A stretch of DNA of 26,882 nucleotides. Source: an uncultured Thermoleophilia bacterium (GTDB taxonomy: Bacteria; Actinomycetota; Thermoleophilia; UBA2241). The notes beneath the pieces are model-generated. The model made no database searches, had not been told where the DNA came from, and saw only the letters and a program-made list of their open reading frames with translations. The translations under genes were made by a program, and so were the position numbers. Every line of letters begins with the position of its first letter. Position 1 is the first letter of the stretch. The stretch is from contig CAZTMO010000001.1 in the NCBI GenBank assembly GCA_964615105.1, positions 1-26,882 on the forward strand, read 5' to 3'. This document shows, one piece after another, positions 5,603-21,467 of the stretch.

Positions 5603-5995
5603 TCAGGCGGGCCTTGTCGGAGGGTACTCCGGGTACGAGAACACGTACACCATACTCATCGGCTCCGCGCTGTCGTTGACCACCCCGTGGGGCACGCCCG
5701 CGGGGATCAGGACACCCTGGCCGGCCCGGTATGAGACGCACTCGTCGCCGATCGAGAGCTTCCCCTCGCCCTCCACGATGTAACACAGCTCGTCCACCTC
5801 GTGGACCATCTGGTTGGTGTTGGCGCCCGGCTGCCACGTCGAGAACCCAAGCATCGTCGCCGAGGCGCCGTTGAGCGGGCCCGAGACCAGCTCGCACACC
5901 CAACTGCCGTCCGGCAGGTCGGTCCGCTTGCCCTCGCTGACGTCGACCACCTTGACGCGCTCGGTCCAGCGCGCAGCGTCCGCGTTCTTGTCCAT
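5603..5995 (-). CDS. Cupin-domain protein (monocupin)
   Basis: 130 aa with motif 1 GANTNQMVHEVDELCYIVEGEG and motif 2 GQGVLIPAGVPHGVVN. The ATG abuts the stop of the upstream gene. Confidence 0.88.
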   Translation of the reverse strand: MDKNADAARWTERVKVVDVSEGKRTDLPDGSWVCELVSGPLNGASATMLGFSTWQPGANTNQMVHEVDELCYIVEGEGKLSIGDECVSYRAGQGVLIPAGVPHGVVNDSAEPMSMVYVFSYPEYPPTRPA

Positions 5996-6997
5996 TCAGA
6001 TCACCAGCGCTCCGTCCTTGATGAGCATGCGCCCTTCAGCCTCGAGGCTGATGTTGCGCAGACAGCCGTCCAGGTGCAGGGCGCTGTGGCTTTGACCTCC
6101 GGGGTAGCAGTGCGCGTTGTCGCCGAGGGCGAAGTGGATCGTGCCGAGCAGGCCCTTCTCGGAGGCCGAGCCGCTCGGCGACTTCGTGCTCGTGCCCATG
6201 GCGAACTCGGCGACGACGTTGGCGTTCTCGTCCGAGCCGGCGACGACCGCCTTGAGGCGCTCGGCCTCGACACCACCTGAGATCTCGACCGCGCGACCGT
6301 CCTTGATCACCCACTTGATGGGCTCGCTGAGCGACCCGAACACGCCCACGCCGAGCATGATGCCGTCAACGACGATGATCCCCTCGGTCTTGTCTTCGAC
6401 GGCGGCGTAAGCGACCTCACCCCACAGCGGGACTGGCCCCATCATCTCGCCAGCGCCCTTGATCGGGACGACCTTGAGCGCCGGACGGTCCTTGATGCAG
6501 ACCTTCACGTCCGTGCCGGCCGGGTTGGTCACGCGGACCCACTCGACGCCGTCCAGTGCCGCCATCAGCTTCTCTGTTCTGGCGACGGTCTCGAGGATGT
6601 CGTCCTCGGTGAGATCCCAGTCAGCCATGCCCTCTTCGATAGACCCGATCTTGGCGCCGTTCTTGACGCTGGCGGCCACCGGGTTGACGTGCGCGAACCG
6701 GTTGGCCCACTCCAGGTTCGTGGTGATGATGATGACGTCGGACGCCTCCATCGCCGCGGCGAGGTTCTTGGCCGGCTCCATAGGGACTTTCATCGACGCC
6801 AGAGCTGCGCTCACATGATGCGAGACGTCGGCGACGACCGGGTACGCACCGAGCGACACGGCGACCCCGGCCACCGCCTCGGCTTCGCGGCGGTGATCCT
6901 CGTCGCAGATGATGAGCACCGCGTCGCCCGCCTTGACGGTGAAGCAGGTCTCCACTACCAGCCGGGCGCCCTTGATGAGCGTCGTGTAGGACTTCAC
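5996..6997 (-). CDS. M29-fold (aminopeptidase T / AmpS-like, short type) metallohydrolase
   Basis: The start is probably GTG 6997, 6 nt after AAAGGGG. Motifs: VKAGDAVLII, VRVTNPAGTDV, PLWGEVAYA, EGIIVVDG, VAEFAMGT, SEKGLLGTIHFALGDN and LHLDG. Confidence 0.8.
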   Translation of the reverse strand: MKSYTTLIKGARLVVETCFTVKAGDAVLIICDEDHRREAEAVAGVAVSLGAYPVVADVSHHVSAALASMKVPMEPAKNLAAAMEASDVIIITTNLEWANRFAHVNPVAASVKNGAKIGSIEEGMADWDLTEDDILETVARTEKLMAALDGVEWVRVTNPAGTDVKVCIKDRPALKVVPIKGAGEMMGPVPLWGEVAYAAVEDKTEGIIVVDGIMLGVGVFGSLSEPIKWVIKDGRAVEISGGVEAERLKAVVAGSDENANVVAEFAMGTSTKSPSGSASEKGLLGTIHFALGDNAHCYPGGQSHSALHLDGCLRNISLEAEGRMLIKDGALVI

Positions 6998-7064
6998 AGC
7001 CAACCCCTTTCAGACCTTCGCTCGTGGGAGACGCGCCGCCCGCGACCCCCCTCCTCTCTCCGGC

Positions 7065-9404
7065 TCACTCCGCTGCCCGCTTCTTTCGCAGCGCCTCAAG
7101 CACTCTCTCGCGCGTCATCGGCAACTCATGCAGACGGATGCCCACGGCGTCGTAGACGGCGTTGGCGATGGCCGGCGCGGTGGGAACGAGGCCGGGCTCA
7201 CCGATACCCTTGGCCCCGAACGGTCCTTTCGTCCCGATACTCTCGACGCAGATGGCCTGCACTTCGGGCATATCGCCGATGTTGGGGATCTTGTAGTCGA
7301 GGAACCGGTCGTTGACGATCCTGCCGTTCTCGTGGACGAGCTCTTCCATGAGAGCGAAGCCGATCCCCTGCGCGACTGAGCCTTCGATCTGACCCTCGGC
7401 CATCGTCTGGTTGATCGTCGTTCCCGTCTCGTGCGCGGCCACGACCTTGAGCACCGTGACTTGACCGGTCTCCGGGTCGACCTCGACTTCGGCTGCCTGC
7501 GTGCCGAACGAGAAGTTGGGGATGTTCTTGGCGAAAGCCGTCGGGATCGTGTATCCCTCGGGCAGGCGGTCGACGAAACGACCCTTGCCCGAGATGGTGA
7601 TGCCGTGCTCGTTGACGGAGTGGTTCACGATCTCGGAGAGGTCGTGCTTCTCCGCCGCACCCTTCGCCCAGATCTTGCCGTCCTGGACAAGGACGTCCTC
7701 GGGAGCGACCTCGAGCATCTCGGCGGCGGCAGCGACGAGATTGCGCCTCGCGTCTTTCGCGGCAGCCAGGACGGCGTTGCCGTCCATGAAACTCGCGCGG
7801 CTCCCCCAGGAGCCCAGGTCATACGGCGTGAGCTCGGTGTCGTGGGAGAGGACCCTGATCGCACTGAGAGGCACGCCGAGCTCCTCGGCGGCGATCTGCG
7901 CCATCGCGGTGTGGGCACCCTGTCCCATGTCGAGAGCTGACGTGATCAGCGCCACCGTGCCTTCGTCGGAGAGCTTGACGAACGCCTCGGCCGAGTTGTA
8001 GCCGTAGAAGCGACCGCCGCCGCCGGTGTGGACCATGTTGGCCAAGCCGACACCACGCAGCGGCGTCCTGCCCTCAGGAGCTCTCTTCTCCGCCCATCCG
8101 ATGCCGTCGGCCGCCGTCTGCATACACTCCGTCATGGCGCAGCCGCAGACCTCGGCGCCTGTGTGCGTGGTCTGCATGGGCTCGTTGGCGTTCTTCATGC
8201 GCAACTCGAGCGGGTCCAGACCCATGCTCTCGGCGAGCTCGTCGATCTGGACCTCGGTCGCGAACGCTACCTGGGGGTTGCCGAAGCCGCGGAACGCCGT
8301 GCCCATCTGCTTGTTGGTGTAGACCAGCTCGCCGTGAAAGCGCACGTTAGGGACGTTGTAGAGCGTGCCGAACATCATGCTCGAGAAATTGACGGTGGCC
8401 GGTCCCTTGTCGTGGTACGCGCCCGCATCGCCGATGAGCGTGAGATCTCGCACGAGGATGCGCCCGTCTTTGGTCCCTCCGGTCTTGAGATGCAGCTTGT
8501 ACGGGTAGCGCGTCTTGCTGGTGGTGAACTCCTCGCTGCGGGTATTGACGATGCGCACCGCACGGCCGGTGATCCGCGAAAGGATCGCGGCGATGGGCAG
8601 CTTCATGTCCATGACCAGCCTGGATCCGAACCCGCCGCCCATGGATGAGTTGATCACCCGCACGTGGCTGAGCGGGACGTCGAGCACGCGGGCGATCTCC
8701 TGACGCTGCGTGTGTGGCGCCTGCGTCGTGGTCCAGATCGTCACGCGGTCGTCGACGTCCCACTTGGCGACGCAGTTGGAGGTCTCGAGACAGGTGTGCG
8801 CGACCTGGTGGGTGACATACGTGCCCTCCACCACGTGGTCGCATTCCTCGAAGGCCTTGTCGGGATCGCCAAAGAGGCGATCGACGCTCCACGTGGCGTT
8901 GCTCTCCTTGTCCTCGTGAACGAGGGGTGCGTCCGGCTTCATGGCCTCGTCGACGTCGAAGACGGCCGGCAGCGGCTCGTAGTCCACCACGATGAGCGAG
9001 AGCGCCTCCTCGGCCGTGTCCTCGTCGATCGCGGCTACGGCGGCCACTTCATCGCCAACGTAGCGCACCTTGTCGGTGCAGAGGATGTGCTTGTCGGCCA
9101 GGAACTGATAGAAGCTGAACTTGGTGTCGGGAACGTCGTCCGCCGTGATGACGGCGCGCACTCCCTTGAGGCGCCTCGCCGCCGCCGTGTCGATGGACCG
9201 GATCCTCGCATGAGGATGGGGACTGCGCAGGATCTTGCCGATGAGCATCCCCGGCATGTGATGGTCGCCGGTGTACTTCGCCTCGCCGCAGACCTTGGGG
9301 ATCGCGTCGATACGCGGCAGGCGCTGGCCGATGATCGTCATCTCTCTCTCGACGACCTCGGTCTTCACGTCTGTCTTCACGTCGGTCTCCACGTCGGATC
9401 TCAT
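7065..9404 (-). CDS. Xanthine dehydrogenase-family molybdopterin-binding large subunit (CoxL/XdhA-like)
   Basis: Start refined to ATG 9404, an ATGA overlap with the small-subunit stop. Motifs: RIDAIPKVCGEAKYTGD, GKILRSPHPHARI, MGGGFGSR, AFRGFGNPQ, DMGQGAHT, GSWGSR, EGQIEGSVAQGIG and GPFGAKGIGEP. Confidence 0.95.
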   Translation of the reverse strand: MRSDVETDVKTDVKTEVVEREMTIIGQRLPRIDAIPKVCGEAKYTGDHHMPGMLIGKILRSPHPHARIRSIDTAAARRLKGVRAVITADDVPDTKFSFYQFLADKHILCTDKVRYVGDEVAAVAAIDEDTAEEALSLIVVDYEPLPAVFDVDEAMKPDAPLVHEDKESNATWSVDRLFGDPDKAFEECDHVVEGTYVTHQVAHTCLETSNCVAKWDVDDRVTIWTTTQAPHTQRQEIARVLDVPLSHVRVINSSMGGGFGSRLVMDMKLPIAAILSRITGRAVRIVNTRSEEFTTSKTRYPYKLHLKTGGTKDGRILVRDLTLIGDAGAYHDKGPATVNFSSMMFGTLYNVPNVRFHGELVYTNKQMGTAFRGFGNPQVAFATEVQIDELAESMGLDPLELRMKNANEPMQTTHTGAEVCGCAMTECMQTAADGIGWAEKRAPEGRTPLRGVGLANMVHTGGGGRFYGYNSAEAFVKLSDEGTVALITSALDMGQGAHTAMAQIAAEELGVPLSAIRVLSHDTELTPYDLGSWGSRASFMDGNAVLAAAKDARRNLVAAAAEMLEVAPEDVLVQDGKIWAKGAAEKHDLSEIVNHSVNEHGITISGKGRFVDRLPEGYTIPTAFAKNIPNFSFGTQAAEVEVDPETGQVTVLKVVAAHETGTTINQTMAEGQIEGSVAQGIGFALMEELVHENGRIVNDRFLDYKIPNIGDMPEVQAICVESIGTKGPFGAKGIGEPGLVPTAPAIANAVYDAVGIRLHELPMTRERVLEALRKKRAAE
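9361..9396. repeat. Three-copy 12-bp tandem repeat in the 5' end of the molybdoenzyme large-subunit gene
   Basis: GTCTTCACGTCT / GTCTTCACGTCG / GTCTCCACGTCG, which encodes DVET-DVKT-DVKT on the minus strand. Confidence 0.8.
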
Positions 9405-9886
9405 CGTGACGTCACCTCCTCGCGAAGGTGGTCTCCCGCGGCCTTGACGGCCTCGATGATCTTCACGTAGCCGGTGCACCGGCAGAGGTTGCCCCGCAGC
9501 CCTTCGAGAATCTGTTCCCGGCTGGGATCGGGATTGCGATCGAGCAAGGCCTTCGCCGACATCACCATGCCGGGGGTACAGAAACCGCACTGGATGGCGC
9601 CGTGCTCGACGAAGGCACGCTGTACAGGGTCGAGCGAGCCCCCGCCGGCCAGACCTTCGATCGTCGTGACCTCGCGACCGTCGGCCTCGTGAGCAAGCAT
9701 GAGGCAGGAGTTGACCGGCTGACCGTCGAGCAGCACCGTGCAGGCTCCACACTCGCCCTGGTTACAGCCGTTCTTGGTACCTGTCAAGCCGATGTCTTCG
9801 CGGATGATCTCGAGGAGGGTGCGATGGGTGTCTACGAACAGGTCGTACTCGTCCCCGTTGACCGTTATGTGCAGCTCTCGCTTCAC
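9401..9886 (-). CDS. 2x[2Fe-2S] small subunit of a XDH-family molybdoenzyme (CoxS-like)
   Basis: [28 protein letters not shown] and GNLCRCTGY. The GTG start overlaps the FAD-subunit stop (GTGA). Confidence 0.96.
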
Positions 9887-10764
9887 CCTCGTCCTCCGTT
9901 CGTGACCCAGCCCTGCGCCGCTGTGAGGACGCGCCGCGACATGACCTCCACCAGCACCCGGCGGTACTCCGCCGAGGCGCGGATATCGTCGATGGGGCGT
10001 GACTCCTCGACCGCTTTGGCGGCCGCCGCCGCGATCACGACCTCGTCCAGCTCTCTACCGATCAGCGACGCCTCGGCGGCGCGCGCCCGCATGGGTGTGG
10101 GGGCGACGGCGCCCAGAGCGAGGCGAGCCTCGCGTACGACGACCGACCCCGGCTCGAAGGCGGCGAACAACGCCACGCCGACCGTACAGCAGTCCATGGC
10201 CGAGCGGAACGTCTTCAGATATGTGGCGAAGCTGTCCTGGGGCACGGCCGGCACGCGGACTGCCTTCAGCAGCTCGCCGCACCGCAGAACGGTCTGCCCG
10301 GGCCCCGTGAAGAAGTCCTCGAGCGGGACGACGCGTTCGTCGCTGCCATCGGTGAGAACGGCCTTGGCATCCAGGGCGATCAGGATCGCCGCCATGTCGG
10401 CTGACGGTGCGGCATTGCAGAGGTTCCCCCCGATGGTCGCCCGGGTGCGCACTTGCACCGAGCCGATCCAGGAGGCGGCCCGTGCGATCGCAGGGAAGCG
10501 CTCCATGACCTCAGGTGAATGCTCGATCACGCCGAGCGGCGTGACCGCTCCGATGGCGACGCCGCCTTGGGCGTCCGCCTCGATGAAGTTGAGGCCGGGC
10601 ACGTCACGAAGGCTCACGACCACGTCGGGACGCAGCCCGGCCGCCCTCACCTGTACGAGGACGTCTGTGCCTCCGGCCAAGGCCAGTGCGGAGCCGTTCG
10701 AGCCGGCCAGCACGTCGCAGGCCTCCTTGAGCGAACTCGGACGCGCGTAGTCGAACGCTCTCAT
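9883..10764 (-). CDS. FAD-binding medium subunit of a XDH-family molybdoenzyme (CoxM-like)
   Basis: Start refined to ATG 10764 (MRAFDYARPSSL). Motifs: LAGGTDVL, IGSVQVRTRATIGGNLCNAAPSAD, ALGAVAPTP and IDDIRASAEYR. Confidence 0.95.
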   Translation of the reverse strand: MRAFDYARPSSLKEACDVLAGSNGSALALAGGTDVLVQVRAAGLRPDVVVSLRDVPGLNFIEADAQGGVAIGAVTPLGVIEHSPEVMERFPAIARAASWIGSVQVRTRATIGGNLCNAAPSADMAAILIALDAKAVLTDGSDERVVPLEDFFTGPGQTVLRCGELLKAVRVPAVPQDSFATYLKTFRSAMDCCTVGVALFAAFEPGSVVVREARLALGAVAPTPMRARAAEASLIGRELDEVVIAAAAAKAVEESRPIDDIRASAEYRRVLVEVMSRRVLTAAQGWVTNGGRG

Positions 10765-10789
10765 TGAATCAGCTCCCGTCCGCGGCCTG

Positions 10790-12016
10790 TCATGCCGACC
10801 GGGTCGCCACGCCGGCGCGCGTGTTCTCGATCGGCGCTTCGACCATCGTGATCGCCTCGCGGGCGCACAGGAAGTAGCAGACGGCGCAGGAGTAGCAGTC
10901 CTTCGGCTTGACGAGGACAGCCTTCTTGTCGCGGATCTCGATGCACTCGCAGTGACCCGGCGCGGCGCAGAGACCACACCCGTTGCACTTCTCGAGGTCG
11001 ATCTCGGGGAGCATCGGGATGTAGTGCACCTCGCCCGGGGTGACGATGTACTTGAGAGCGATTCCGCGCATGTCCGCCAACGTCTCGTAGCCATTCTCGT
11101 CCATGAACTTGCGCATGCCGGGCTCGATCTTGGCGAACGCCTTGTAGCCCTTCAGGTAGAGGAGCGAGCAGTACGTGAGCACGGTGGCGCCGTACATGAT
11201 CATCTCCACGGAGTGGCGCCAGTTCATGAGACCGCCACCGCCGGCCAGCGGCAACGTCGGACAGATCGTGCGCATCTGCGCGATATGGCGGTAGGCGAGC
11301 GGCCGGATCCACGGGCCGCAGAGCCCGGCGAAGGACTGGTTGTCGGTCGACGGGTACATCGGCGTGCCGCCGTTCTTGATGTTGAGCGGCGGCAACGACT
11401 GCGGGCAGTTGATGGCCGACACCGCAGCCGCGCCGTTCTTCTCCACCGAACGCGCCACCATCATGGTGTTGGCCTCTGGGGTCATCTTCGGCATCACGGG
11501 GATCTTCACCGCATCGGCCACGGCCTTGCAGACCTGACCGGCCAGTGCCGGGTCCTTGCCTAGGGTGGCGCCGAGCTCGGGCTCTTCGTCGACACCCATC
11601 TGCTTGGCCATGAGCCCCAGGTTCGGACAGCTCATGTTGAGCTCGAGCATGTCGGCGCCGGCCTCTTCGAGCATGCGCGCCAACTTGGCCCAGCCCTCGA
11701 GGTCCTCACCAGGGCCCATCATGTTGGCGATGATCTTGAGCTCGGTCTGCTCCTTGCACTGCTGGATGAGCTCCTGCGTGTCCTCCACGCGCATACGCTC
11801 GCCCGACGGTGAGTAGAAGGCGCCTTCCTTCTCGATGATGTGATAGGGACGCGCGTACAACGGGACCTTGAGAAAGGTGAGCTTCGTGCTGACGGCCGAA
11901 GCGCCGTTCTCCTCAGCCCACTTGATCTTCTCGACCTTGTTCGTCAACTCGGACGAGGCGATGATGAATGGATTCTTAAGCTTGAGGCCTGCGAAGTCGA
12001 CTGACAGGTCAGCCAT
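10790..12016 (-). CDS. preA: PreA-like FMN TIM-barrel oxidoreductase (dihydroorotate/dihydropyrimidine dehydrogenase family) with C-terminal 2x[4Fe-4S] domain
   Basis: Start ATG 12016 after GAAGGGGGAG. Motifs: LSVDFAGLKLKNPFIIAS, LELNMSCPN (active-site loop Cys), PKMTP, SAINC, GLCGPWIRPLA, LAGGGG, CNGCGLC...HC and CYSCAVCYFLC. The symbol indicates similarity, not proven function. Confidence 0.85.
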   Translation of the reverse strand: MADLSVDFAGLKLKNPFIIASSELTNKVEKIKWAEENGASAVSTKLTFLKVPLYARPYHIIEKEGAFYSPSGERMRVEDTQELIQQCKEQTELKIIANMMGPGEDLEGWAKLARMLEEAGADMLELNMSCPNLGLMAKQMGVDEEPELGATLGKDPALAGQVCKAVADAVKIPVMPKMTPEANTMMVARSVEKNGAAAVSAINCPQSLPPLNIKNGGTPMYPSTDNQSFAGLCGPWIRPLAYRHIAQMRTICPTLPLAGGGGLMNWRHSVEMIMYGATVLTYCSLLYLKGYKAFAKIEPGMRKFMDENGYETLADMRGIALKYIVTPGEVHYIPMLPEIDLEKCNGCGLCAAPGHCECIEIRDKKAVLVKPKDCYSCAVCYFLCAREAITMVEAPIENTRAGVATRSA

Positions 12017-13661
12017 CGAGCTCCCCCTTCTGCACGTCGGTTTCCTCTGCGGTCTCTGCAAACCCGGACACCGCCACGGTCTCGCGGGTCGCCTCAAGGC
12101 GCGCGGCGATCTCCAGGTAGCGGCCCTCGACCGCCGCCTGAGCGTCGTCGCGCGCTTCGTCTGTCCAGTAGCCCAGCTCGTAGCCGAACCACGGCTTTCT
12201 CAGGCTCAGCGGCGGCAGGCCCTCGGCCTCCCAGCGCGCCAGCGCCCGTTCCATGAACTCCTTGCGCGGCAGCGACGTCGGCGGGTAGTCCCACTTGCGC
12301 GTCGCGTCGATGAGGATCGCCGACGTCCCCGAGGGCTGCGGGAAGCGCTGTTCGTCGACGTGCGCCTCTGGCGGCGCCGAGGACGGATCGAGGATGCTGG
12401 CCTTGCCGGTGACGATGTGCGTGTCCAGATGTGGGCGCATCCGGTAAGCCATAGCCCAGTTGACGGCATCGGCGTCATTGGGATCGATGTCCTCGTCGAC
12501 GGCGACGATCATCTTGCCGATCGTCGGGTCGAGCGCGACGGCGGCGTGGAGCGCCTGCCAGGGCTGCGACGGGTGTACCTTCTTGAGCTGGATGACCATC
12601 AACCCGTAGCTGCCGGTCATCTCGTGGAGCTGGACGTCGAGGATCCCCGGGATGTTCGCCGACTTCAACCTGTTGAGGTACACGGCGTCATAGGCGAGCT
12701 TGCGGATGAGGCTGCTCTCCGACGGCGGGAACTGGCTCAGGAAGGCCTGGTAGACCGGCGTCTTGCGGTGCATGATCCCCGTCACGTGGAACACCGGATT
12801 GGCGACGCGCGTGCCCATGTAGCCCGTGTACTCGCCGAAGGGCGCCTCCTGCTCGCGGTACGTCGGGTCGACGTATCCCTCGACGACGATCTCGGCGCTC
12901 GCCGGGACCTCGAGATCGACCGTCTGGCACTTGACCAGCTCGATCGGCTCGCCGGCGATGCCGCCGGCAACGGCGAACTCGTCGACGCCGTACGGGATCT
13001 TGGCGACGCTGCAGAGGCCGACGGCCGGCGTGCAGCCGAGGATGATGGCCGCCTCGAGCACCTTGCCGTTACGGCGCGCGCTCTGCAGGTGCAGGCCGAT
13101 GTGTTGGCTCTGATGAGCCATCATGCCGGCCTTTCCGCCCCCCTTCACCATCACCCGGTACGTGCCCACGTTGCGGTCGCCAGTCTCGGGATCCTTGGTC
13201 ACCCAGAAGGGCGAGGTGAAGTACGGCGCGGGGTCGAAGCCCGGCGTGGAGATGGGATGCGGGAACTCGAGAATGCCGTCGTGCTCAAGCAGCCCGTCGC
13301 CGACGTGGATCTCCTCCATGACGGGACCATCGTCGACGAGCACGGGAGGGATGTAGCCTCGGTGGACCGCCGCCCAGCGATCACTGATCTCGTCGGGGCC
13401 ACAGCCGAGCGCCTTCGCGTATACCGCCCGGTTGGCCCCGAGGACACCGACAGCGACGGGGCCGGGGAACGTGCGTCCGTTGACGTCTCTCACGTCCTCG
13501 AACACGAATGCCGTGCGCTGCTCGGCCGGCAGGCCGCGGAACTGCAGCCTGACCAGCGGCATGAGCTCGGTGTCCTTGCAGATCGGCGTGCGCACCCGCC
13601 GGAGCAGGTCTGCGGCCTCCAACGCCGCGATGTACTCGCGAAAATCCTTGTAATAGCTCAC
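12009..13661 (-). CDS. ubiD: UbiD-family prFMN-dependent (de)carboxylase, about 550 aa
   Basis: Start refined to GTG 13661 (GTGA overlap, MSYYKDFREYIAALE). Motifs: RNVGTYR, EIVVEG, EAPFGEYTGY, IVAVDEDIDP and ILIDATR. The symbol is family-level only. Confidence 0.93.
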   Translation of the reverse strand: MSYYKDFREYIAALEAADLLRRVRTPICKDTELMPLVRLQFRGLPAEQRTAFVFEDVRDVNGRTFPGPVAVGVLGANRAVYAKALGCGPDEISDRWAAVHRGYIPPVLVDDGPVMEEIHVGDGLLEHDGILEFPHPISTPGFDPAPYFTSPFWVTKDPETGDRNVGTYRVMVKGGGKAGMMAHQSQHIGLHLQSARRNGKVLEAAIILGCTPAVGLCSVAKIPYGVDEFAVAGGIAGEPIELVKCQTVDLEVPASAEIVVEGYVDPTYREQEAPFGEYTGYMGTRVANPVFHVTGIMHRKTPVYQAFLSQFPPSESSLIRKLAYDAVYLNRLKSANIPGILDVQLHEMTGSYGLMVIQLKKVHPSQPWQALHAAVALDPTIGKMIVAVDEDIDPNDADAVNWAMAYRMRPHLDTHIVTGKASILDPSSAPPEAHVDEQRFPQPSGTSAILIDATRKWDYPPTSLPRKEFMERALARWEAEGLPPLSLRKPWFGYELGYWTDEARDDAQAAVEGRYLEIAARLEATRETVAVSGFAETAEETDVQKGELDG

Positions 13662-15550
13662 AATCCTGCTCCATCCAGTAGGTTCGCGACGATCGGATCG
13701 CTCGTGACCCATTCGAGTCCGAGCCGCTCCAGGGTCTCGGGTGTTGGCATGCTCGTCACCGGGTCGTATCCGCTCGCGGCGTACAGCTCCCGGCGCATGA
13801 GGTCGAAGTCCACGACCTGCCCGGCGATCGGGCCCTCGGGGACCGCCTCCTCGAGGAGCCTCGCCGGGATCGTGTCGTCCTCGGCGCGCAGGCCTTCACG
13901 GACGTTGATGACGCGCTCCAGGGCGTTGATGCGCTCGCCGGCCAGGTACATGTCGGCCGCCGAGAACTCGTGCCCCGTCGCCGTGCCGATGAGCTCGGCC
14001 AGTGTGCCGTCCTGCATGCCGATGGTCAGGAACGCGCACGTGCCTGCGGAGTCGGCCGCCGCGGCTCGCCGGTTGCGGCTGCCGAGCGCGATCGGCGCCT
14101 TGCCCGAGTCCGCGAAGCGGTCGATGTCCGGGTTCGTCAGTTCGGCGGTGACCGTGTAGCCGCCGGCGTGATGGCAGCCGCCCCGGTTGCCGCACCCGTA
14201 GACGAGCGCCATCCCCTTCGCCCCACGAGGATCGTAACCGCCCACCTCCATGCCTTTGGCGTGCATCGCAAAGGCCTCGGAACCCTGGCCGATGCGTTCG
14301 GCCATCGCTTTGCTACCCAGCGCGATCTCAGCGCCGAAGCCGCGTCTGAAGGCGGCGTCCTTGACCAGCTCGATCATCGCCTCCGCGTTGCCGAAGCGCA
14401 GGTCGATGCCCCCTGTGTCTTCCTTGGTGATCAACCCGCGTTCGAAGCACTCCATGGCGAACGAGATGGTGACGCCGACCGAGATGGTGTCGATGCCGTA
14501 GAGATCGCAGAGCTGGTCGGCCGCGATGACCGCGCCCAGATCGTAGACGCCGCACGAGCTCCCCAGCGAGTAGACGGTCTCGTACTCCGGTCCTTCAGAG
14601 GTCGCCCCCGCGTAGGGACCGTCCCGCACGACCGTGACCTTGCTGCACCGCGAGGGACAAGGATCGCCGCACGGAGCGTCCTTAACGAGGTACTGCTCGC
14701 GCAGCATGTCGCCGAGCAGCCCACGACCCTTGTCGACCGGCGCCGACCGCTGCCAGTTGTCGGCCGGCATGATGCCCGAATTGAGCGTCACGGCGACAGT
14801 GCTGACCGAGCCGTGAAGCTTCAGCGGACCAGAGGTGAAGGGGTGCTCACGAAGCTCCTTGACGATCTTCTTGACCGCCGCTTTGAACCCGTCGGGATCG
14901 CCGACGGGCGCGGCCTCTGCGCCCGCGCGCACGACCATGGCCTTGACGTTCTTTGAGCCCATGACAGCGCCGGCGCCGCCGCGGCCGAGCGCACGACGCT
15001 CGTTGAGCAGGCAGGCGTAAGGAACGAGGTTCTCTCCGCCCGGGCCGATGCAGGTGATCGCGACTTGGCCGCGCGGCAGTTCGTCGCGGATGTACTCCTG
15101 CGCCGAAAGCGTATCGAGGCCCCAGAGGTGGCCGGCCGGATGCAGCTTGGCCTTGCCGCCAGTGATCTCGACGTACACCGGCTCGTCGCTACGCCCGGTG
15201 AGGACGATGACGTCGAAGCCGGAACGCTTGATCACCGGTCCCAGATCGCCCCCGGTGATGCAGAAGAGATAGAGCCCGGTCTGAGGCGACTTCGTCGCCA
15301 GGGCGGCCCGAGCAGAACCCGGGGCCGTCGTTCCGCTCAGGGGTCCGGAGGCGAAGATGAGCGGGTTCTCCGGACTCAGCGCGTCGGTCCCTGCGGGCAG
15401 CATGTCGAACAGGTAGCGGGCGGCAAGGCCGCGGCCGCCGACGAAGCTTCTCGCGGCGGCCGCATCGAGATCCTCGACACGCTGCTCGCCGCTGCCGACG
15501 TCGACGACGAGAACCTTGCCCCAGAATCCGCCCACAGGGAACTGCCCCAT
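13658..15550 (-). CDS. aor: Aldehyde:ferredoxin oxidoreductase (AOR/WOR) family tungstoenzyme catalytic subunit, paralog B
   Basis: ATG 15550 lies 6 nt after AAGGAG (alternative GTG 15556). Motifs: GGRGLAA, KSPQTG, GRGGAGAVMGSKNVKA, EGPEYETV, CDLYGIDTIS, KGMEVGGYDPR, RGGCHH and DSAGTCAF. Confidence 0.95.
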   Translation of the reverse strand: MGQFPVGGFWGKVLVVDVGSGEQRVEDLDAAAARSFVGGRGLAARYLFDMLPAGTDALSPENPLIFASGPLSGTTAPGSARAALATKSPQTGLYLFCITGGDLGPVIKRSGFDVIVLTGRSDEPVYVEITGGKAKLHPAGHLWGLDTLSAQEYIRDELPRGQVAITCIGPGGENLVPYACLLNERRALGRGGAGAVMGSKNVKAMVVRAGAEAAPVGDPDGFKAAVKKIVKELREHPFTSGPLKLHGSVSTVAVTLNSGIMPADNWQRSAPVDKGRGLLGDMLREQYLVKDAPCGDPCPSRCSKVTVVRDGPYAGATSEGPEYETVYSLGSSCGVYDLGAVIAADQLCDLYGIDTISVGVTISFAMECFERGLITKEDTGGIDLRFGNAEAMIELVKDAAFRRGFGAEIALGSKAMAERIGQGSEAFAMHAKGMEVGGYDPRGAKGMALVYGCGNRGGCHHAGGYTVTAELTNPDIDRFADSGKAPIALGSRNRRAAAADSAGTCAFLTIGMQDGTLAELIGTATGHEFSAADMYLAGERINALERVINVREGLRAEDDTIPARLLEEAVPEGPIAGQVVDFDLMRRELYAASGYDPVTSMPTPETLERLGLEWVTSDPIVANLLDGAGL

Positions 15551-15552
15551 GC

Positions 15553-16701
15553 TCACTCCTTTGCCAGCGCCTTGCGATACAGGCGCTCGAGGTCGGCAGG
15601 CGACGCGTTACGCACGTTCAGCCTGTAGTTGACGACTTTCGTGCACTGCTCGACCAGTACGGGGATCTCTTCGTCGGTGACGACAGCCGGGTCCAGGGTG
15701 GTCGGGAAGCCCACGGCCTCCATGAGACTCCAGAGGCGATAGAGCAGCTCCTCGGCGAGCTCGGCATCGTCGCCCTGCTCGCCGAGCAACCTCGCGATCG
15801 GGGCGATCTTGGCGCTGGCCACCGGCAGGTTGAACTCCATGGCGTACGGCAGCATGATGCCGGTGGCCAGCCCATGAGACATGTGGAGCCGTCCCAGTGG
15901 CTGCGACAGAACGTGGGCGAGACCCGGCAGCGACGTGCCCGTCGCCATGTTCGCGATCGTGCTGGCCTCGAGCATGCGCTGCTTGGCGCCGAGATCGCCG
16001 GTCAACGCCGCTCTGGGCAGACTGTCGAAGATCGTCGCCGCGGACGTCGCGGCCAAGCCGTCCGAGAAGTCGGTCGCGCCGACCGACCAGATCGCGTCCA
16101 GCGCATGCGCCAGGGCGTCCATCCCGGCAACCAGCGCCGGCCACGCCGGAAGGCTCTCCATGAGTCCGCCGTCCAGGATCGCGACGGTGGGGTACGTGCG
16201 TTCGTCGAGGATCGACATCTTGAAGCCGCGCGCCTCGTCGGTGAGGATCGTCACCTTCGAGACCTCGGTCCCCGAGCCCGCGGTAGTGGGGACGGCGATC
16301 ACCGGGAACGGCGCCTTGGCGGCCTTGTTGAAGCCCTCGTAGTCGGTGAGCACGCCGCCGTTGGCGGCCACGAGGGCGATTCCCTTACCGGCGCACATCG
16401 GGCTTCCGCCCCCCAGAGCTATGACCAGGTCGCAACCCTCCGCCTTGAAGACCTCGACGCCGGCAGCGACGGTGCGCACGCCGGGGTCTTCCTCGACTTG
16501 GTCAAACAGGACATAGGGCAATTCCGCCTCGTCCAGGAGGCCGGTGACGCGGCTCGTCACGCCCGCCGCCGACAGACCGGCGTCAGTACAGATGAACGCC
16601 TTGCTGCCCCCGGAGGCGCGCACCTGCGCCGCGACGGCCCCGATGCTGCCCAGGCCGTGCACGATCCGAGTAGGCATGAAGAAGAGCTTCGGCTGCGACA
16701 T
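15553..16701 (-). CDS. Iron-containing (group III) alcohol dehydrogenase
   Basis: The start is probably ATG 16701 after GGGGGA. Motifs: FFMPTRIVHG, LGGGSPM, VPTTAGSGTEVS, GMDALAHALD and GLAHVLSQ...SHG. Confidence 0.93.
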   Translation of the reverse strand: MSQPKLFFMPTRIVHGLGSIGAVAAQVRASGGSKAFICTDAGLSAAGVTSRVTGLLDEAELPYVLFDQVEEDPGVRTVAAGVEVFKAEGCDLVIALGGGSPMCAGKGIALVAANGGVLTDYEGFNKAAKAPFPVIAVPTTAGSGTEVSKVTILTDEARGFKMSILDERTYPTVAILDGGLMESLPAWPALVAGMDALAHALDAIWSVGATDFSDGLAATSAATIFDSLPRAALTGDLGAKQRMLEASTIANMATGTSLPGLAHVLSQPLGRLHMSHGLATGIMLPYAMEFNLPVASAKIAPIARLLGEQGDDAELAEELLYRLWSLMEAVGFPTTLDPAVVTDEEIPVLVEQCTKVVNYRLNVRNASPADLERLYRKALAKE

Positions 16702-16731
16702 CGATCCCCCAGTCATCAGACTCTTGTCTTA

Positions 16732-16759
16732 AGCATAGTCTATCGTCCAGTATTATGAA
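16732..16759 (-). promoter_or_regulatory. Candidate internal sigma70 promoter (TTCATA-N16-TATGCT) for the adh-to-cupin genes
   Basis: An AT-rich patch overlaps the gntR stop, with -35-like TTCATA at 16754-16759 and -10 TATGCT at 16732-16737. The predicted start is near 16725, about 25 nt upstream of the adh ATG. Confidence 0.5.
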
Positions 16760-17715
16760 TCGGACAAGTCGACCTCGAGGACATCGTCTGCTCCGGCCTG
16801 CCCGCGGACGTCCTCAGGCTCCAAGCTGACGAGCGCAGTACCGTCACGAACGGCTCCGCGCGCGGCCGCTTCACCAGTCAGCGCGTCCCAGAACGTCCCA
16901 CCGTTCTCGTGGCTCCTCGTGAGAAATCCGCGATGCTTGTACCGGTCGGAGCGGTAGTAGACCTCCGCCAGATCGACCACGCGGGCGTCCGACGTGTAGA
17001 CGGTGAGCGTCAGTTTGAGAAGCGAGGTCAGCAGATCCACTTCGAGCAACCTCGCCTGCTCGTCGTCGGCGGCCACCGCCTCGAACATCTGCGAAGCCCA
17101 ATCGACCTTGAAGCCGGTCCGCTTCTCGATCAGCACGATGAGGGGTTCCTTCTCAAGTTCGCTCAGCGAGAGACACGCGCCCACCTCGTACGGGACGTAG
17201 TTGGTCAAGACGGCCAGCGGCCGGTCGCCCACGAGCCGCACACGTTGCACGTAGAACAGGTCCGCGTCTTCGCCGATCGCGAACGTCTCAGCGAGGTCCG
17301 GCGTTGGTTTCACGAGCCTGAACTCGACCACGCGGACGCGCGTGTCGGGCCCGATGTGGATGAGATCCTCCAAGCTCCCGCTGATGTGCGGCGTCGCGTC
17401 GTCGGCAAGCTCCTCCGAGACGAACGAGCCCTTCCCCTTGACTCGCCGGATCAGGCCCTGGTCGTCGAGCATCTGGAGAGCCTGGCGCACCACCACACGG
17501 CTCACGCCGAAACGCTTCGTGAGCTCCGCCTCGGACGGCAACTGGCGCCCAGGCGCGAGCTTGCCCGCGATGATTTGCTCTTTGAGGTTCCGCATGACCT
17601 GGTAGTAGAGGGGGATCCCATTGCGACGACTTGGCCTCCCCCTGCGGGTCGTCGACAGCCGGCCGTCGCCGGCGGCAGCTCCCGGCCCGCCCTTGGAGCC
17701 CCACTGTCCACTCAT
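16753..17715 (-). CDS. GntR-family transcriptional regulator, HutC subfamily (wHTH plus UTRA)
   Basis: ATG 17715 lies 7 nt after AGGAG. The HTH reads IPLYYQV...LPSEAELTKRFGVSRVVVRQALQMLDDQGLIRRVKGKGSFV. The UTRA region includes VQRVRLVGDRPLAVLTNYVP and YYRSDRY. Confidence 0.95.
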   Translation of the reverse strand: MSGQWGSKGGPGAAAGDGRLSTTRRGRPSRRNGIPLYYQVMRNLKEQIIAGKLAPGRQLPSEAELTKRFGVSRVVVRQALQMLDDQGLIRRVKGKGSFVSEELADDATPHISGSLEDLIHIGPDTRVRVVEFRLVKPTPDLAETFAIGEDADLFYVQRVRLVGDRPLAVLTNYVPYEVGACLSLSELEKEPLIVLIEKRTGFKVDWASQMFEAVAADDEQARLLEVDLLTSLLKLTLTVYTSDARVVDLAEVYYRSDRYKHRGFLTRSHENGGTFWDALTGEAAARGAVRDGTALVSLEPEDVRGQAGADDVLEVDLSDS

Positions 17716-17742
17716 GTCCGTACTCCTGCCCCCATGAGGGCG

Positions 17743-18027
17743 TCAGCCCCCGCCCAGCGGCACGATCACCCGCAGCTCCGCCTCGTCGCGCACGACGGCG
17801 TCGGCGGCGACGCGCTCGCCGTCCAGCGTCAGAAAGGTCCTGCCTTCCTGCGGGACGGCGAGCACGTCCAGCACGTCGTCCACCGTGCTGCCGCGCTTCA
17901 ACTCCACGACCGTCCGACCCCGGTCTTCAGGCGGCAGCAGGCTCGCGTGATTGCCGAACAGCACGACCCTGACGCGAACGGTGTCAGCACCGGTCGGCTC
18001 CTGCGCCTGGCGGAGATGCTCGGCCAT
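17743..18027 (-). CDS. moaD: MoaD/ThiS-family sulfur-carrier protein (copy 2)
   Basis: 94 aa ending RVIVPLGGG, immediately downstream of AOR paralog A. The symbol is family-level only. Confidence 0.88.
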   Translation of the reverse strand: MAEHLRQAQEPTGADTVRVRVVLFGNHASLLPPEDRGRTVVELKRGSTVDDVLDVLAVPQEGRTFLTLDGERVAADAVVRDEAELRVIVPLGGG

Positions 18028-18033
18028 CGAACG

Positions 18034-19839: not shown

Positions 19840-20246
19840 GAGGCACCTCCCCAGGTGAGCGCCCCTTCGGGACACCACTTGACACAGAGCGGATCACCGT
19901 CGCACAGGTCGCAGATCATGATGCGCCTGTCGACGGCGTCCTGGTGGACGTTCGGGCAGGCGTCGAGACAGGCGCCGCAGTCGGTGCACTCCTCCTGGAT
20001 GAAGCGCACGACGCCGGCCTCCTCGTCCCAGACGAGCGCTTCCTGCGGGCACGCGTCGACGCAGACTCGCTCGTGCGTCATGTCACAGACGGAGCACTGC
20101 ATGGGCCCAAGGTGGATACCCGGCTGTCGCGAGACCTGGATGCACGCCCCGGATGGCTGAACGCGGCCAAGCTTGTTCAGCGAGCACACGCCCGAGCACA
20201 TATCGCAGGCGATGCACTTCTCGACATGGAACTCGATGTAGTTCAT
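19836..20246 (-). CDS. 4x[4Fe-4S] electron-transfer subunit (DmsB/AorA-like)
   Basis: Start ATG 20246 (MNYIEFHVEK). 136 aa with CIACDMCSGVC, CSVC...CVDACP, CTDCGACLDACP and CDLC...CVKWCP. Translationally coupled to AOR paralog A. Confidence 0.93.
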   Translation of the reverse strand: MNYIEFHVEKCIACDMCSGVCSLNKLGRVQPSGACIQVSRQPGIHLGPMQCSVCDMTHERVCVDACPQEALVWDEEAGVVRFIQEECTDCGACLDACPNVHQDAVDRRIMICDLCDGDPLCVKWCPEGALTWGGAS

Positions 20247-20262: not shown

Positions 20263-21432
20263 TCAGACTTGGTCGAGCTCCGCGAGAAACGCATCGACTC
20301 CGGCGCCCACGTCGGCGCGGGAGCCCATCTCGTTGAGGCAGTCCCCCAGCGCCGTGATGGCGAGAAGGCCGTACGCCGGGCTGCAGGTGCGTCCCATGTG
20401 GCCGAGTCGGACGAGCTTTCCGTAGATGGGGGTGTTGAAGAGGCTCCCCGAGATGAGCACGCCGAACTTCGCGACCATCCGGTCACGCAGCTTCTCATCA
20501 TCGACGCCGTCCGGAACGGCGACGGCGGTGGCCACATTGCACGCGTGCGCCTCGGTGTCGGGCCAGAGCTCGAGCCCCATCGCCTTGACGCCGGCCCGCG
20601 TGGCACGCGCCACCTCGGCGTATCGCCGGAAGTGCTCCTCGTGGCCCACCTCGAGGTACTCGCTCACCGCGGCGTTGAGGGCCGGCACCTCTGAAGTCGA
20701 GGTCGTGTACGGCCAGATCTCCTTCTCGAGCCAGAGCTCTTTCCAGTCAAGGATGCTGAAGTACGAGTAGCGGTTCGGCCGTTTGACAGTGCGGAAGAGC
20801 TCCCACGCGGCGTCGGAGATCGCCATGGCGCTGAGGCCGGGCGGCGCCCCAAGGACCTTCTGTGAGCCGACGGAGACGATGTCGATGCCCCACGCATCGA
20901 CCTCTACGGGGACGCTGCCGGCGCAGCTCACGGAGTCGACGAACACGAGCTTGCCATACTGCTTGCCCAGCTTGGCCAGGGTCTCGAGGTCAGATTGGGT
21001 GCCGCAGGGCGTCTCACAATGCACGAGCCAGAGGATCTTGGCCTCGGGATGCGCCTTGAGGACCGCCTCGAGCTGTTCCGGCTCGACGACGGTGTTCCAG
21101 TCGGTCTCGACCGGGATCGCCTTGGCGCCATACTTCTCGAGGAAGTAGCGGTTGCCCTCGCCGTAGTGCCCGCTCTCGATGTTGATCACCACGTCGCCCT
21201 CGTCGAGGCCGCAGAAGGAGATGGCCTCGAGTCCGAGGAGGGCCTCGCCCTGCATCATCACGATGTCGTTCTTCGTCTTAAGGAAGGCCTTGAACTTCTC
21301 CTGCGTGTCACGGAAGAGCTCCATGTAAGGCTGCGAGTAGTCGAAGAGCAGTTGCCCGCCGAGGGCGGAGCGGACCCTGTCCGAGAGCTCGACCGGCCCC
21401 GCAGTCATGATGAAGTCGATAGATCGGGTCAT
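20263..21432 (-). CDS. ppaT: Pyridoxamine:pyruvate aminotransferase-like protein (fold type I, class V)
   Basis: ATG 21432 lies 8 nt after AAGGAAGG. Motifs: TAGPV, LFDY, QGEALLGLEA, SGHYG, LKAHPE, HCETPCG, VDSVS, SQKVLGAPPGL, SILDW and GKLVRLGHMG. These match the M. loti PPAT sequence as I recall it better than AGXT/PucG (GSG-type motif). Class V membership is near-certain and the specific function is inferred. Confidence 0.8.
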   Translation of the reverse strand: MTRSIDFIMTAGPVELSDRVRSALGGQLLFDYSQPYMELFRDTQEKFKAFLKTKNDIVMMQGEALLGLEAISFCGLDEGDVVINIESGHYGEGNRYFLEKYGAKAIPVETDWNTVVEPEQLEAVLKAHPEAKILWLVHCETPCGTQSDLETLAKLGKQYGKLVFVDSVSCAGSVPVEVDAWGIDIVSVGSQKVLGAPPGLSAMAISDAAWELFRTVKRPNRYSYFSILDWKELWLEKEIWPYTTSTSEVPALNAAVSEYLEVGHEEHFRRYAEVARATRAGVKAMGLELWPDTEAHACNVATAVAVPDGVDDEKLRDRMVAKFGVLISGSLFNTPIYGKLVRLGHMGRTCSPAYGLLAITALGDCLNEMGSRADVGAGVDAFLAELDQV

Positions 21433-21467
21433 ACCGAACACCTTCCTTCGTTAAGTGGGTGACGGGC

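Follow-up and report, generated by a model that had tools for sequence, protein, structure and literature searches.

Introduction

A long minus-strand gene array in an uncultured Thermoleophilia bacterium raises the question of which compound its molybdenum enzyme acts on, and in which direction. The array lies on contig CAZTMO010000001.1 (assembly GCA_964615105.1; contig C1 of a metagenome-assembled genome (MAG) that is 81% complete), which was analysed over a stretch of 26,882 nucleotides, here called the window. The enzyme is encoded by three genes of the xanthine dehydrogenase (XDH) family at positions 7,065 to 10,764. A first-pass annotation, made from the sequence alone, had proposed that it hydroxylates a pyridine ring derived from vitamin B6. 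Taken by itself the enzyme is the kind of N-heterocycle hydroxylase that one would expect; what makes it interesting is its substrate and its partners. To our knowledge, the bacteria known to break down vitamin B6 are all aerobic soil bacteria, in which a flavin oxygenase opens the ring; the pathway that the window enzyme apparently serves would be new. Here we describe the structure, family, conserved catalytic residues, nearest relatives, synteny and accessory genes of the enzyme, and from these we infer its substrate, the position that it attacks, the direction of its reaction and its use of selenium. We give roughly even odds (a probability of about 0.5) to the reading that it is a hydroxylase, probably selenium-dependent, that places an oxygen atom derived from water on C6 of a B6-derived 3-hydroxy-2-methylpyridine carboxylate.

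Results

Three overlapping genes of the xanthine oxidase family

Judged by its sequence, the trio is a three-subunit molybdenum (Mo) hydroxylase of the LMS type in the xanthine oxidase (XO) family. Its genes were found among the 21 that were called in the window and scanned for domain content with Pfam and NCBIfam, and they encode the FAD-binding, iron-sulphur (FeS) and Mo subunits in that order. The translational coupling described in the first-pass annotation is present at both junctions: the FAD stop and FeS start codons overlap in GTGA (9883-9886) and the FeS stop and Mo start codons in ATGA (9401-9404). A GGAG-type Shine-Dalgarno sequence lies 8-13 nt 5' of each of the three starts. Pfam assigned MoCoBD_1 (E-value 1.2e-79), MoCoBD_2 (1.1e-78) and Ald_Xan_dh_C (8.8e-33) to the Mo subunit, Fer2_2 (2.1e-34) to the FeS subunit and both FAD_binding_5 (4.7e-48) and CO_deh_flav_C (2.9e-23) to the FAD subunit. 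The Cys residues of the small subunit have the canonical spacing that two [2Fe-2S] clusters need. At its start the Mo subunit has 21 extra residues with DVKT repeats (9341-9404, its first 21 codons); most of its orthologues, at 755-761 amino acids, align only from residue 22-24, and translation might instead begin at the ATG of codon 22.

The first-pass annotation had distinguished the enzyme from 4-HBCR (4-hydroxybenzoyl-CoA reductase) by two absences, and both are real. The FAD subunit has five scattered Cys residues and no Cys-rich stretch of the kind that makes up the [4Fe-4S] insertion of HcrB. It aligned end to end with CutM/CoxM flavoproteins (top match in the PDB, CutM 1FFV_C, 148 bits over residues 4-283). 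The alignment with HcrB covered residues 4-117 only, ending where the HcrB insertion starts, and the HcrB model TIGR03195 gave 113 bits against a cut-off of 404.55. Among the 21 genes of the window there was neither a CoA ligase nor a CoA transferase domain.

Hydroxylase-type loops in the molybdenum subunit

Over its whole length the Mo subunit scored highest with the hidden Markov model (HMM) of HcrA (TIGR03194; 682 bits, cut-off 994.55); the scores for XdhA (601.8, cut-off 780), PucD (510.7, cut-off 783.65), CoxL (358.7, cut-off 991.15) and XdhB (343.8, cut-off 849.5) were lower. HcrA was also the top match among whole PDB chains (1RM6_A, 488 bits), in part because the large subunit of nicotinate dehydrogenase (Ndh) of Eubacterium barkeri is deposited as two chains. 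When the subunit was searched by halves Ndh came first in both: residues 1-440 matched NdhL (3HRD_A, 298.8 bits) ahead of HcrA (269.7) and CoxL (197.8), while residues 441-779 matched NdhM (3HRD_B, 216.6 bits) ahead of HcrA (210.0) and KdhL (156.4). The top PDB match of the FeS subunit was NdhS (3HRD_D, 178.9 bits).

The four motifs on which the first-pass annotation had relied (GGGFGSR, RGFGNPQ, GSWGSRAS and KGIGEP) can all be located in the 779-residue translation. In the printed alignments the first active-site loop reads AFRGFGNPQ in the window enzyme, AFRGFGVPQ in Ndh and AMRGHGTVD in Hcr, and the second reads GAKGIGEPGL, GAKGVGEPAL and GAKEASEGML, respectively; by this comparison the active-site loops are of the hydroxylase (Ndh) type and not of the Hcr type. 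We also examined individual columns in an alignment of 159 large subunits of the family. Gln228, Arg299, Phe374 and the catalytic Glu736, which we take to be the counterparts of bovine Gln767, Arg880, Phe914 and Glu1261, are invariant in the core clade of 30 sequences described below and align with identical residues of Ndh, XdhB and XdhA. Leu263 occupies the column of the xanthine-binding Glu (presumably bovine Glu802, which follows the GGGFGGK motif), where Deinococcus XdhB has Glu. Gly463 stands where xanthine dehydrogenases have their second stacking Phe (the phenylalanine of the XdhB ISF motif, which we equate with bovine Phe1009) and is followed by an inserted, invariant Arg465.

Three enzyme classes were considered and rejected. 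The Leu at the Glu802 column and the failure to reach any of the Xdh equivalog cut-offs rule out a xanthine dehydrogenase; the missed HcrA cut-off, the lack of a [4Fe-4S] insertion and the non-Hcr loops rule out 4-HBCR itself; and the CoxL score, together with a loop mismatch (CoxL 1N5W_B has AYRCSFR where the window enzyme has AFRGFGNPQ), rules out an aerobic CO dehydrogenase. The assignment to the pyridine-ring hydroxylases made in the first-pass annotation is supported in part, with Ndh as the nearest solved relative, Ndh-type loops and features that are neither those of Xdh nor those of Hcr, while its substrate and the attack at C6 are argued from the neighbouring genes.

A separate lineage in the large-subunit tree

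Large subunits were placed in a FastTree phylogeny (LG+gamma) in which sequences annotated as PaoC, XdhB and CoxL in a plasmid collection served as outgroups; a search of that collection gave no characterised Ndh or Hcr anchor. The sequences of E. barkeri Ndh, Thauera aromatica Hcr and Enterocloster bolteae Ucdh lie outside the tree, and placement relative to them comes from bit scores, motifs and an Hcr-like proxy within it (L067, 894 bits on TIGR03194). The window Mo subunit falls in a core clade of 30 sequences (at least 58% identity; support 0.999), which is joined with a support of 0.937 by a sister assemblage of 17 sequences (43-54% identity). Sequences with Hcr loops, L067 among them, form a separate clade of eight. 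XdhA and XdhD of Escherichia coli, XdhB, CoxL and PaoC are all distant from the window clade, and ten representatives of the nearest clades reached none of the equivalog cut-offs. The split large-subunit genes in related genomes (G031, G036 and G038) group with CoxL-like sequences, so they are no proxies for Ndh. The phylogeny thus sets the enzyme apart from the Hcr-motif clade, from Xdh and from CoxL, with the proxy and the scores standing in for Hcr and Ndh. The Mo subunit is, on the evidence of its sequence, a member of an uncharacterised lineage that lies between Ndh, Hcr and E. coli XdhA and has hydroxylase-type loops.

Two of the more distant groups have neighbourhoods of their own. One sister lineage (L117-L121, 54% identity; for example L121:2741-10957) adjoins genes for an amidohydrolase, a major facilitator superfamily (MFS) transporter and a 2-hydroxyacid dehydrogenase, which stand in place of the NicX-like, cupin and UbiD genes found at the window; it probably belongs to another N-heterocycle pathway. 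Another XDH clade (43% identity; L015, L018, L020 and L032, from MAGs of Binatia and Deltaproteobacteria) has the order UbiD-FeS-Mo-FAD, and its UbiD is 44-46% identical to that of the window. The pairing of a decarboxylase with a Mo hydroxylase therefore recurs outside the B6-type cluster.

The neighbouring genes

The array begins with a PnrA-type ABC transporter, a class V aminotransferase resembling pyridoxamine-pyruvate aminotransferase (PPAT), an aldehyde oxidoreductase (AOR), a GntR regulator, an iron-type alcohol dehydrogenase (Fe-ADH) and a second AOR. It continues with UbiD, a reductase resembling PreA and dihydropyrimidine dehydrogenase (DPD), the XDH trio, an M29-like gene, a cupin and a MoaD-like gene; beyond it lie a convergent M20 hydrolase, UbiX and DXS. 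Coordinates are given in Table 1.

Table 1. The XDH-family trio and the neighbouring genes discussed in the text
Feature	Position	Strand	Remarks
FAD-binding medium subunit, CoxM/CutM type, without [4Fe-4S] insertion	9883..10764	-	293 aa; Pfam FAD_binding_5, CO_deh_flav_C
Small subunit, two [2Fe-2S] clusters	9401..9886	-	161 aa; Pfam Fer2, Fer2_2; eight Cys
Molybdopterin-binding large (Mo) subunit	7065..9404	-	779 aa; Pfam, NCBIfam, PDB searches by halves, column analysis
PreA/DPD-like FMN reductase, C-terminal 2x[4Fe-4S] domain	10790..12019	-	Pfam DHO_dh; candidate reductase of the hydroxylated ring
NicX-fold (M29-like) protein	5996..7003	-	AlphaFold model fold match; candidate ring-opening enzyme acting on the XDH product
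Cupin	5603..5995	-	Pfam Cupin_2; always adjoins the NicX-like gene
UbiD-family decarboxylase	12009..13712	-	Pfam UbiD domains
PPAT-like aminotransferase	20263..21441	-	NF046070, 344.6 bits

The presence of the PPAT-like gene ties the cluster to vitamin B6. Its score on NF046070 lies below the cut-off of 600 and compares with 159.9 bits for the next family. The PreA/DPD-like gene lies 23 nt upstream of the FAD gene. Its product gave 225.8 bits on the PreA model NF006183 (cut-off 335), its top PDB match was the FMN domain of pig DPD (112 bits) and its catalytic-Cys loop, NMSCPN, is invariant in seven homologues. The M29-like gene starts 61 nt downstream of the Mo gene. A search of the PDB with phmmer did not retrieve NicX with the M29-like protein; it was the fold search alone that did so, with an AlphaFold2 model (mean predicted local distance difference test, pLDDT, 79.7) whose top match was 7CN3_A (E 2.1e-21; template-modelling (TM) scores 0.76/0.73). 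This entry is NicX, the 2,5-dihydroxypyridine 5,6-dioxygenase of Pseudomonas putida. The M29 aminopeptidases reached TM scores of at most 0.61. The NicX-like and DPD-like neighbours resemble, by analogy with these enzymes, proteins that act on an N-heterocyclic ring already oxygenated next to the nitrogen, and the UbiD enzyme presumably supplies the monocarboxylate substrate or else consumes the hydroxylated product.

The two AORs bear on the possibility that the XDH is itself an aldehyde oxidoreductase of the XO family, turning pyridoxal or a 5-formyl intermediate into the acid. Animal aldehyde oxidase oxidises pyridoxal and the XO family includes such enzymes; several distant clusters, moreover, have one AOR only where B6 needs two aldehyde oxidations. 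The window, however, already has two AORs. The models for glyceraldehyde dehydrogenase (442 bits), pterin aldehyde oxidoreductase (394) and PaoC (353) score far lower on the Mo subunit than do HcrA (682) and XdhA (602), the enzyme is kept in a deltaproteobacterial module with no alcohol dehydrogenase (ADH), aminotransferase or AOR nearby, and its constant partners are candidates for ring opening and not side-chain enzymes. We regard this role as very improbable.

A conserved module

The window proteins were mapped onto 169 loci from genomes and metagenomes (tblastn layout), and loci were counted when the Mo gene was flanked by at least 6 kb upstream and at least 5 kb downstream. Since some loci are near-duplicates (L014/L110 and L139/L150), somewhat fewer of them are independent than the counts given here. 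The NicX-like, cupin and UbiD genes occur together with the Mo gene in all 14 loci with a Mo identity of at least 50%; in 35 loci of other XDH clades the NicX-like gene and cupin were absent without exception. The PreA-like gene was found in ten of ten loci at an identity of at least 58%. The module is spread across Thermoleophilia, Thermodesulfobacteriota/'Deltaproteobacteria' and related MAGs.

Orthologues of the XDH, the NicX-like protein and PPAT occur in the same 8 of 41 related genomes, seven of which have all three on one contig. The eighth (G016) has an intact XDH and one NicX-like copy on C12; its PPAT is on C1, next to an XDH copy that is truncated and has an in-frame TGA. Besides these eight, one genome has decayed copies of all three and one has PPAT alone. 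In G007 (C17:58107-76645) the PPAT, XDH Mo and NicX-like genes are decayed: the matches are partial and contain in-frame TGA codons, a state that suggests ongoing loss of the cluster from this genome.

More distant versions of the module differ in what accompanies it. In one lineage (L107, L127 and L128; Mo identity 58-61%) there is a PPAT-like gene (42-43% identity), an AOR and an ABC transporter of the same type. In a deltaproteobacterial MAG (L014/L110, 67% identity) PreA, UbiD, the NicX-like gene, the cupin and the XDH are followed by TctBAC and an alanine dehydrogenase, and a Liv-type transporter is also present; PPAT, AOR and ADH genes were absent within 22 kb. An alanine dehydrogenase occurs in several versions of the cluster (tblastn; L014:15361-16596, L098 and L142). 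It would fit the recycling of the pyruvate/alanine pair for PPAT and is present, too, at the deltaproteobacterial locus, where no PPAT was found. A gene of the 3-hydroxyacyl-CoA dehydrogenase family lies between UbiD and the NicX-like gene at L107:6199-7149 and L142:990-1949 (Pfam 3HCDH_N/3HCDH), with a counterpart at L128:6167-7126 assigned from its position and size only; at that position the window lacks a gene of this kind, and the genes scanned in L107, L142 and L128 included no CoA ligase. At L107:1215-1613 a gene for a small 2x[4Fe-4S] ferredoxin stands between the PPAT-like gene and AOR. The ferredoxin may carry electrons between AOR, the DPD-like reductase and, more tentatively, the XDH.

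Selenium-cofactor genes beside the orthologues

Directly after the Mo gene, close orthologous loci (75-83% identity) carry a YqeC::MocA fusion, often XdhC, and YqeB. XdhC and MocA, the latter for the cytosine-dinucleotide cofactor, are maturation factors dedicated to enzymes of the XO family. The fusion and YqeB were present in six of six such loci with sufficient flanks, and XdhC in two of these six. Scores were above the cut-offs for YqeC (TIGR03172, 129-133 bits, cut-off 73) and YqeB (TIGR03309, 344-354 bits, cut-off 220), and those of the MocA part (TIGR03310, 162-177 bits) lay under its cut-off of 186.45. When contig C6 of the window's own genome was pooled with the orthologous loci the ranges were 344-363 bits for YqeB (cut-off 220) and 127-133 for YqeC (cut-offs 73 and 27.6). 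A selD gene scoring 318-353 bits, over the cut-off, was found in all five of the searched relatives that have the orthologue (G005, G012, G016, G018 and G024). Each of these selD genes has one in-frame TGA, as expected for a SelD that contains selenocysteine, which indicates that the lineage also decodes selenocysteine. Haft and Self (2008; PMC2276186) proposed YqeB, YqeC and SelD as markers of selenium-dependent molybdenum hydroxylases. This link to a selenium cofactor was missing from the first-pass annotation. Because of the marker genes, and because the closest solved relative, Ndh, is selenium-dependent, we consider a Mo-Se centre likely in the window enzyme; by analogy with E. barkeri Ndh the cofactor is probably the cytosine-dinucleotide form with a labile selenium ligand.

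Contig C6 (G000; L179, about 9772-20000) carries two further XDH-family trios, with Mo subunits 39% and 36% identical to that of the window. They stand back to back with yqeC, mocA (apparently in another frame than yqeC) and yqeB. The only selenium-cofactor accessory genes detected in the genome thus adjoin these paralogues and not the enzyme of the B6 cluster.

Discussion

The direction of the reaction

Members of the XO family can also run in reverse, and the window enzyme might be a reductive dehydroxylase, like 4-HBCR, Ucdh or the urate 6-dehydroxylase, that removes the phenolic 3-OH with electrons from NAD(P)H or ferredoxin. The first-pass annotation had thought a reductive role the less likely one because the FAD subunit has no [4Fe-4S] insertion and no CoA genes are nearby. 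We agree that it is less likely, but not that the two absences decide the matter. Ucdh of Enterocloster bolteae (urolithin C 9-dehydroxylase), which belongs to the XO family and among characterised enzymes is nearest to 4-HBCR (32.7% identity), dehydroxylates free urolithins, which are phenols, with NADH, and its medium subunit is described only as an FAD subunit (bioRxiv 10.1101/2025.01.17.632430). DOPDH, which depends on YqeBC and SelD, acts on urate by taking away its 6-oxo group, with a reductase and an amidohydrolase following it (bioRxiv 10.1101/2025.04.24.650524). With Ucdh and DOPDH known, the missing insertion and the missing CoA genes are no longer decisive against reduction, and since DOPDH works reductively the selenium markers do not fix the direction either.

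A reductive role would accord with the rank of HcrA as the top whole-length HMM and the top whole-chain PDB match, and the two AORs would deliver reduced ferredoxin. The loops, on the other hand, are of the Ndh type and sequences that have Hcr motifs fall in a clade of their own, while the FAD subunit is without a low-potential cluster. The 3-OH is neither para to a carboxyl or thioester group nor next to the nitrogen, and its loss would give an unactivated pyridine in a cluster that has no second hydroxylase and would leave the NicX-like and DPD-like neighbours without a plausible substrate. On balance we consider reduction unlikely, and hydroxylation remains the direction that we prefer.

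The substrate and the position attacked

In the B6 ring C2 bears a methyl group and C3 a hydroxyl group, which leaves C6 as the only free carbon adjacent to the nitrogen. Hydroxylation at C6 would be para to the 3-OH and would create the 2,5-dihydroxypyridine pattern that NicX recognises; the pyridone tautomer would be an ene-lactam like the one that DPD reduces in uracil. An attack at C6 would in this way fit all three conserved partners.

The same neighbourhood may nonetheless serve a hydroxylase of some other heteroaromatic carboxylate, the upper genes of the B6 type being one of several feeder modules. Candidate substrates are a pyridine carboxylate with one or two carboxyl groups that enters the cell as such, 2-furoate formed from furandicarboxylate, and a methylpyrimidine carboxylate of the thiamine type. 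The deltaproteobacterial genome has the module with its TctBAC and Liv-type transporters and no PPAT orthologue was found in it, from which it follows that the substrate of the module need not derive from B6. The sister group at 54% identity, with its amidohydrolase and MFS transporter, and the likeness of the adjacent reductase to DPD can be read in the same way. Against this, the XDH, NicX-like and PPAT orthologues co-occur in the same genomes of the window's lineage, and a PPAT-like gene is also present in the 58-61% loci of another. B6 has two side chains, which two AORs and an ADH would suit; the NicX fold suggests a dihydroxypyridine more than a furan or a pyrimidine, and the alanine dehydrogenase of several clusters suits an aminotransferase coupled to pyruvate and alanine. 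A substrate unrelated to B6 is thus a minority possibility.

Several observations weigh against a selenium-dependent C6 hydroxylase of a B6-derived ring. The identity of the substrate and the choice of C6 are drawn from the neighbours. The Mo subunit reaches no NCBIfam equivalog cut-off, its highest whole-length score belongs to HcrA and the lead of Ndh over HcrA is only about 35 bits when both halves are summed; Ucdh and DOPDH, moreover, illustrate that XO-family members near Hcr can be reductive. The PreA-like reductase was found in none of the four well-flanked loci of the 50-54% clade, and the best match to PPAT in the L014/L110 genome is 32% identical, with no orthologue found. As to selenium, the window cluster and L098 are without maturation genes; in the window's own genome yqeC/mocA and yqeB are on contig C6 and xdhC on C232, away from the B6-type cluster, and selD is represented only by a 78-bit fragment at a contig end.

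A possible pathway

If the C6 hydroxylase reading is correct, B6 vitamers would be taken up and oxidised by the PPAT-like aminotransferase, the Fe-ADH and the two tungsten AORs. This would yield 3-hydroxy-2-methylpyridine-4,5-dicarboxylate, to be decarboxylated by the UbiD enzyme. The XDH would then attack C6 with a Mo-bound oxygen derived from water, with Glu736 as the base, and two electrons would pass from the Mo centre through the two [2Fe-2S] clusters to FAD. Its product would have hydroxyl or oxo groups para to each other in the 2,5-dihydroxypyridine pattern. Two fates may be envisaged for it: either the DPD-like reductase reduces the ene-lactam double bond and hydrolytic opening follows, or the NicX-fold protein cleaves the XDH product directly.

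The first of these fates leads to a bolder and more doubtful proposal, to which we attach a low probability: that the B6 ring is opened without O2 by selenium-dependent hydroxylation at C6, reduction of the pyridone with the released electrons (directly or through ferredoxin) and hydrolytic opening by the NicX-fold protein. A full-text literature search found no description of an anaerobic or a molybdenum-dependent B6 pathway. If true, this would be the first anaerobic route of B6 catabolism and the first Mo/Se enzyme to act on a B6 compound, and it would give the NicX fold a new chemistry, hydrolysis in place of dioxygenation.

The conserved module combines a Mo hydroxylase, probably of the Mo-Se type, with tungsten enzymes, a decarboxylase of the UbiD family, a reductase like DPD and a protein with the NicX fold. 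Should the proposed role of the XDH prove correct, the module would provide a testable route by which B6 is turned over where sediments and groundwater are anoxic. The molybdenum hydroxylases would gain a substrate class, and the poorly understood selenium-cofactor system a further client.

Comparison with known systems

The selenium-dependent Mo hydroxylase NdhFSLM of E. barkeri (3HRD) is the closest parallel among solved structures, leading the PDB matches for both Mo halves and for the FeS subunit. The two enzymes share the RGFG-PQ and GxGEP loops and a Leu after the GGGFG motif, and orthologues of the window enzyme are linked to selenium-cofactor accessory genes. Ndh, in an anaerobe, hydroxylates a pyridine carboxylate next to the nitrogen with water. 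In the nicotinate pathway a ring reductase and a hydrolase act after it. The two differ in that the Mo subunit of Ndh is split into L and M chains, whereas that of the window is one chain, and in that the FAD subunit of the window is nearer to CutM/CoxM than to NdhF (148 against 87.9 bits). The window, with its NicX-like, cupin, UbiD and DPD-like genes, has no nicotinate-fermentation neighbourhood, and in its presumed substrate, 3-hydroxy-2-methylpyridine carboxylate, the methyl group blocks the C6 position of the nicotinate type.

HcrCAB of T. aromatica (1RM6) has the same three-subunit architecture and the highest whole-length scores (682 HMM bits and 488 PDB bits), but the window enzyme lacks its RGHGTVD and KEASEG loops and its [4Fe-4S] insertion, and the window has no CoA ligase. 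Enzymes of the E. coli XdhABC and XdhB-PucD types belong to the same family, the XdhA models score second best (601.8, cut-off 780) and E. coli xdhABC lies near yqeB-yqeC-mocA. Bona fide xanthine dehydrogenases are distant in the tree and are distinguished from the window enzyme by its Leu at the Glu802 column and its Gly with the inserted Arg465 at the ISF column. Ucdh and DOPDH/XdhAC, which were compared by description only, are three-subunit or related XO-family enzymes of anaerobes and depend on XdhC; they run reductively, whereas the chemistry of the neighbours at the window favours oxidation.

A functional counterpart may be an unrelated protein. The 2-methyl-3-hydroxypyridine-5-carboxylate (MHPC) oxygenase of the aerobic B6 pathway in Mesorhizobium loti is a flavoprotein monooxygenase that uses O2 and NADH. 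The window XDH would act on the same intermediate and would serve the same end, the preparation and opening of the pyridine ring, with the difference that its oxygen atom would come from water.

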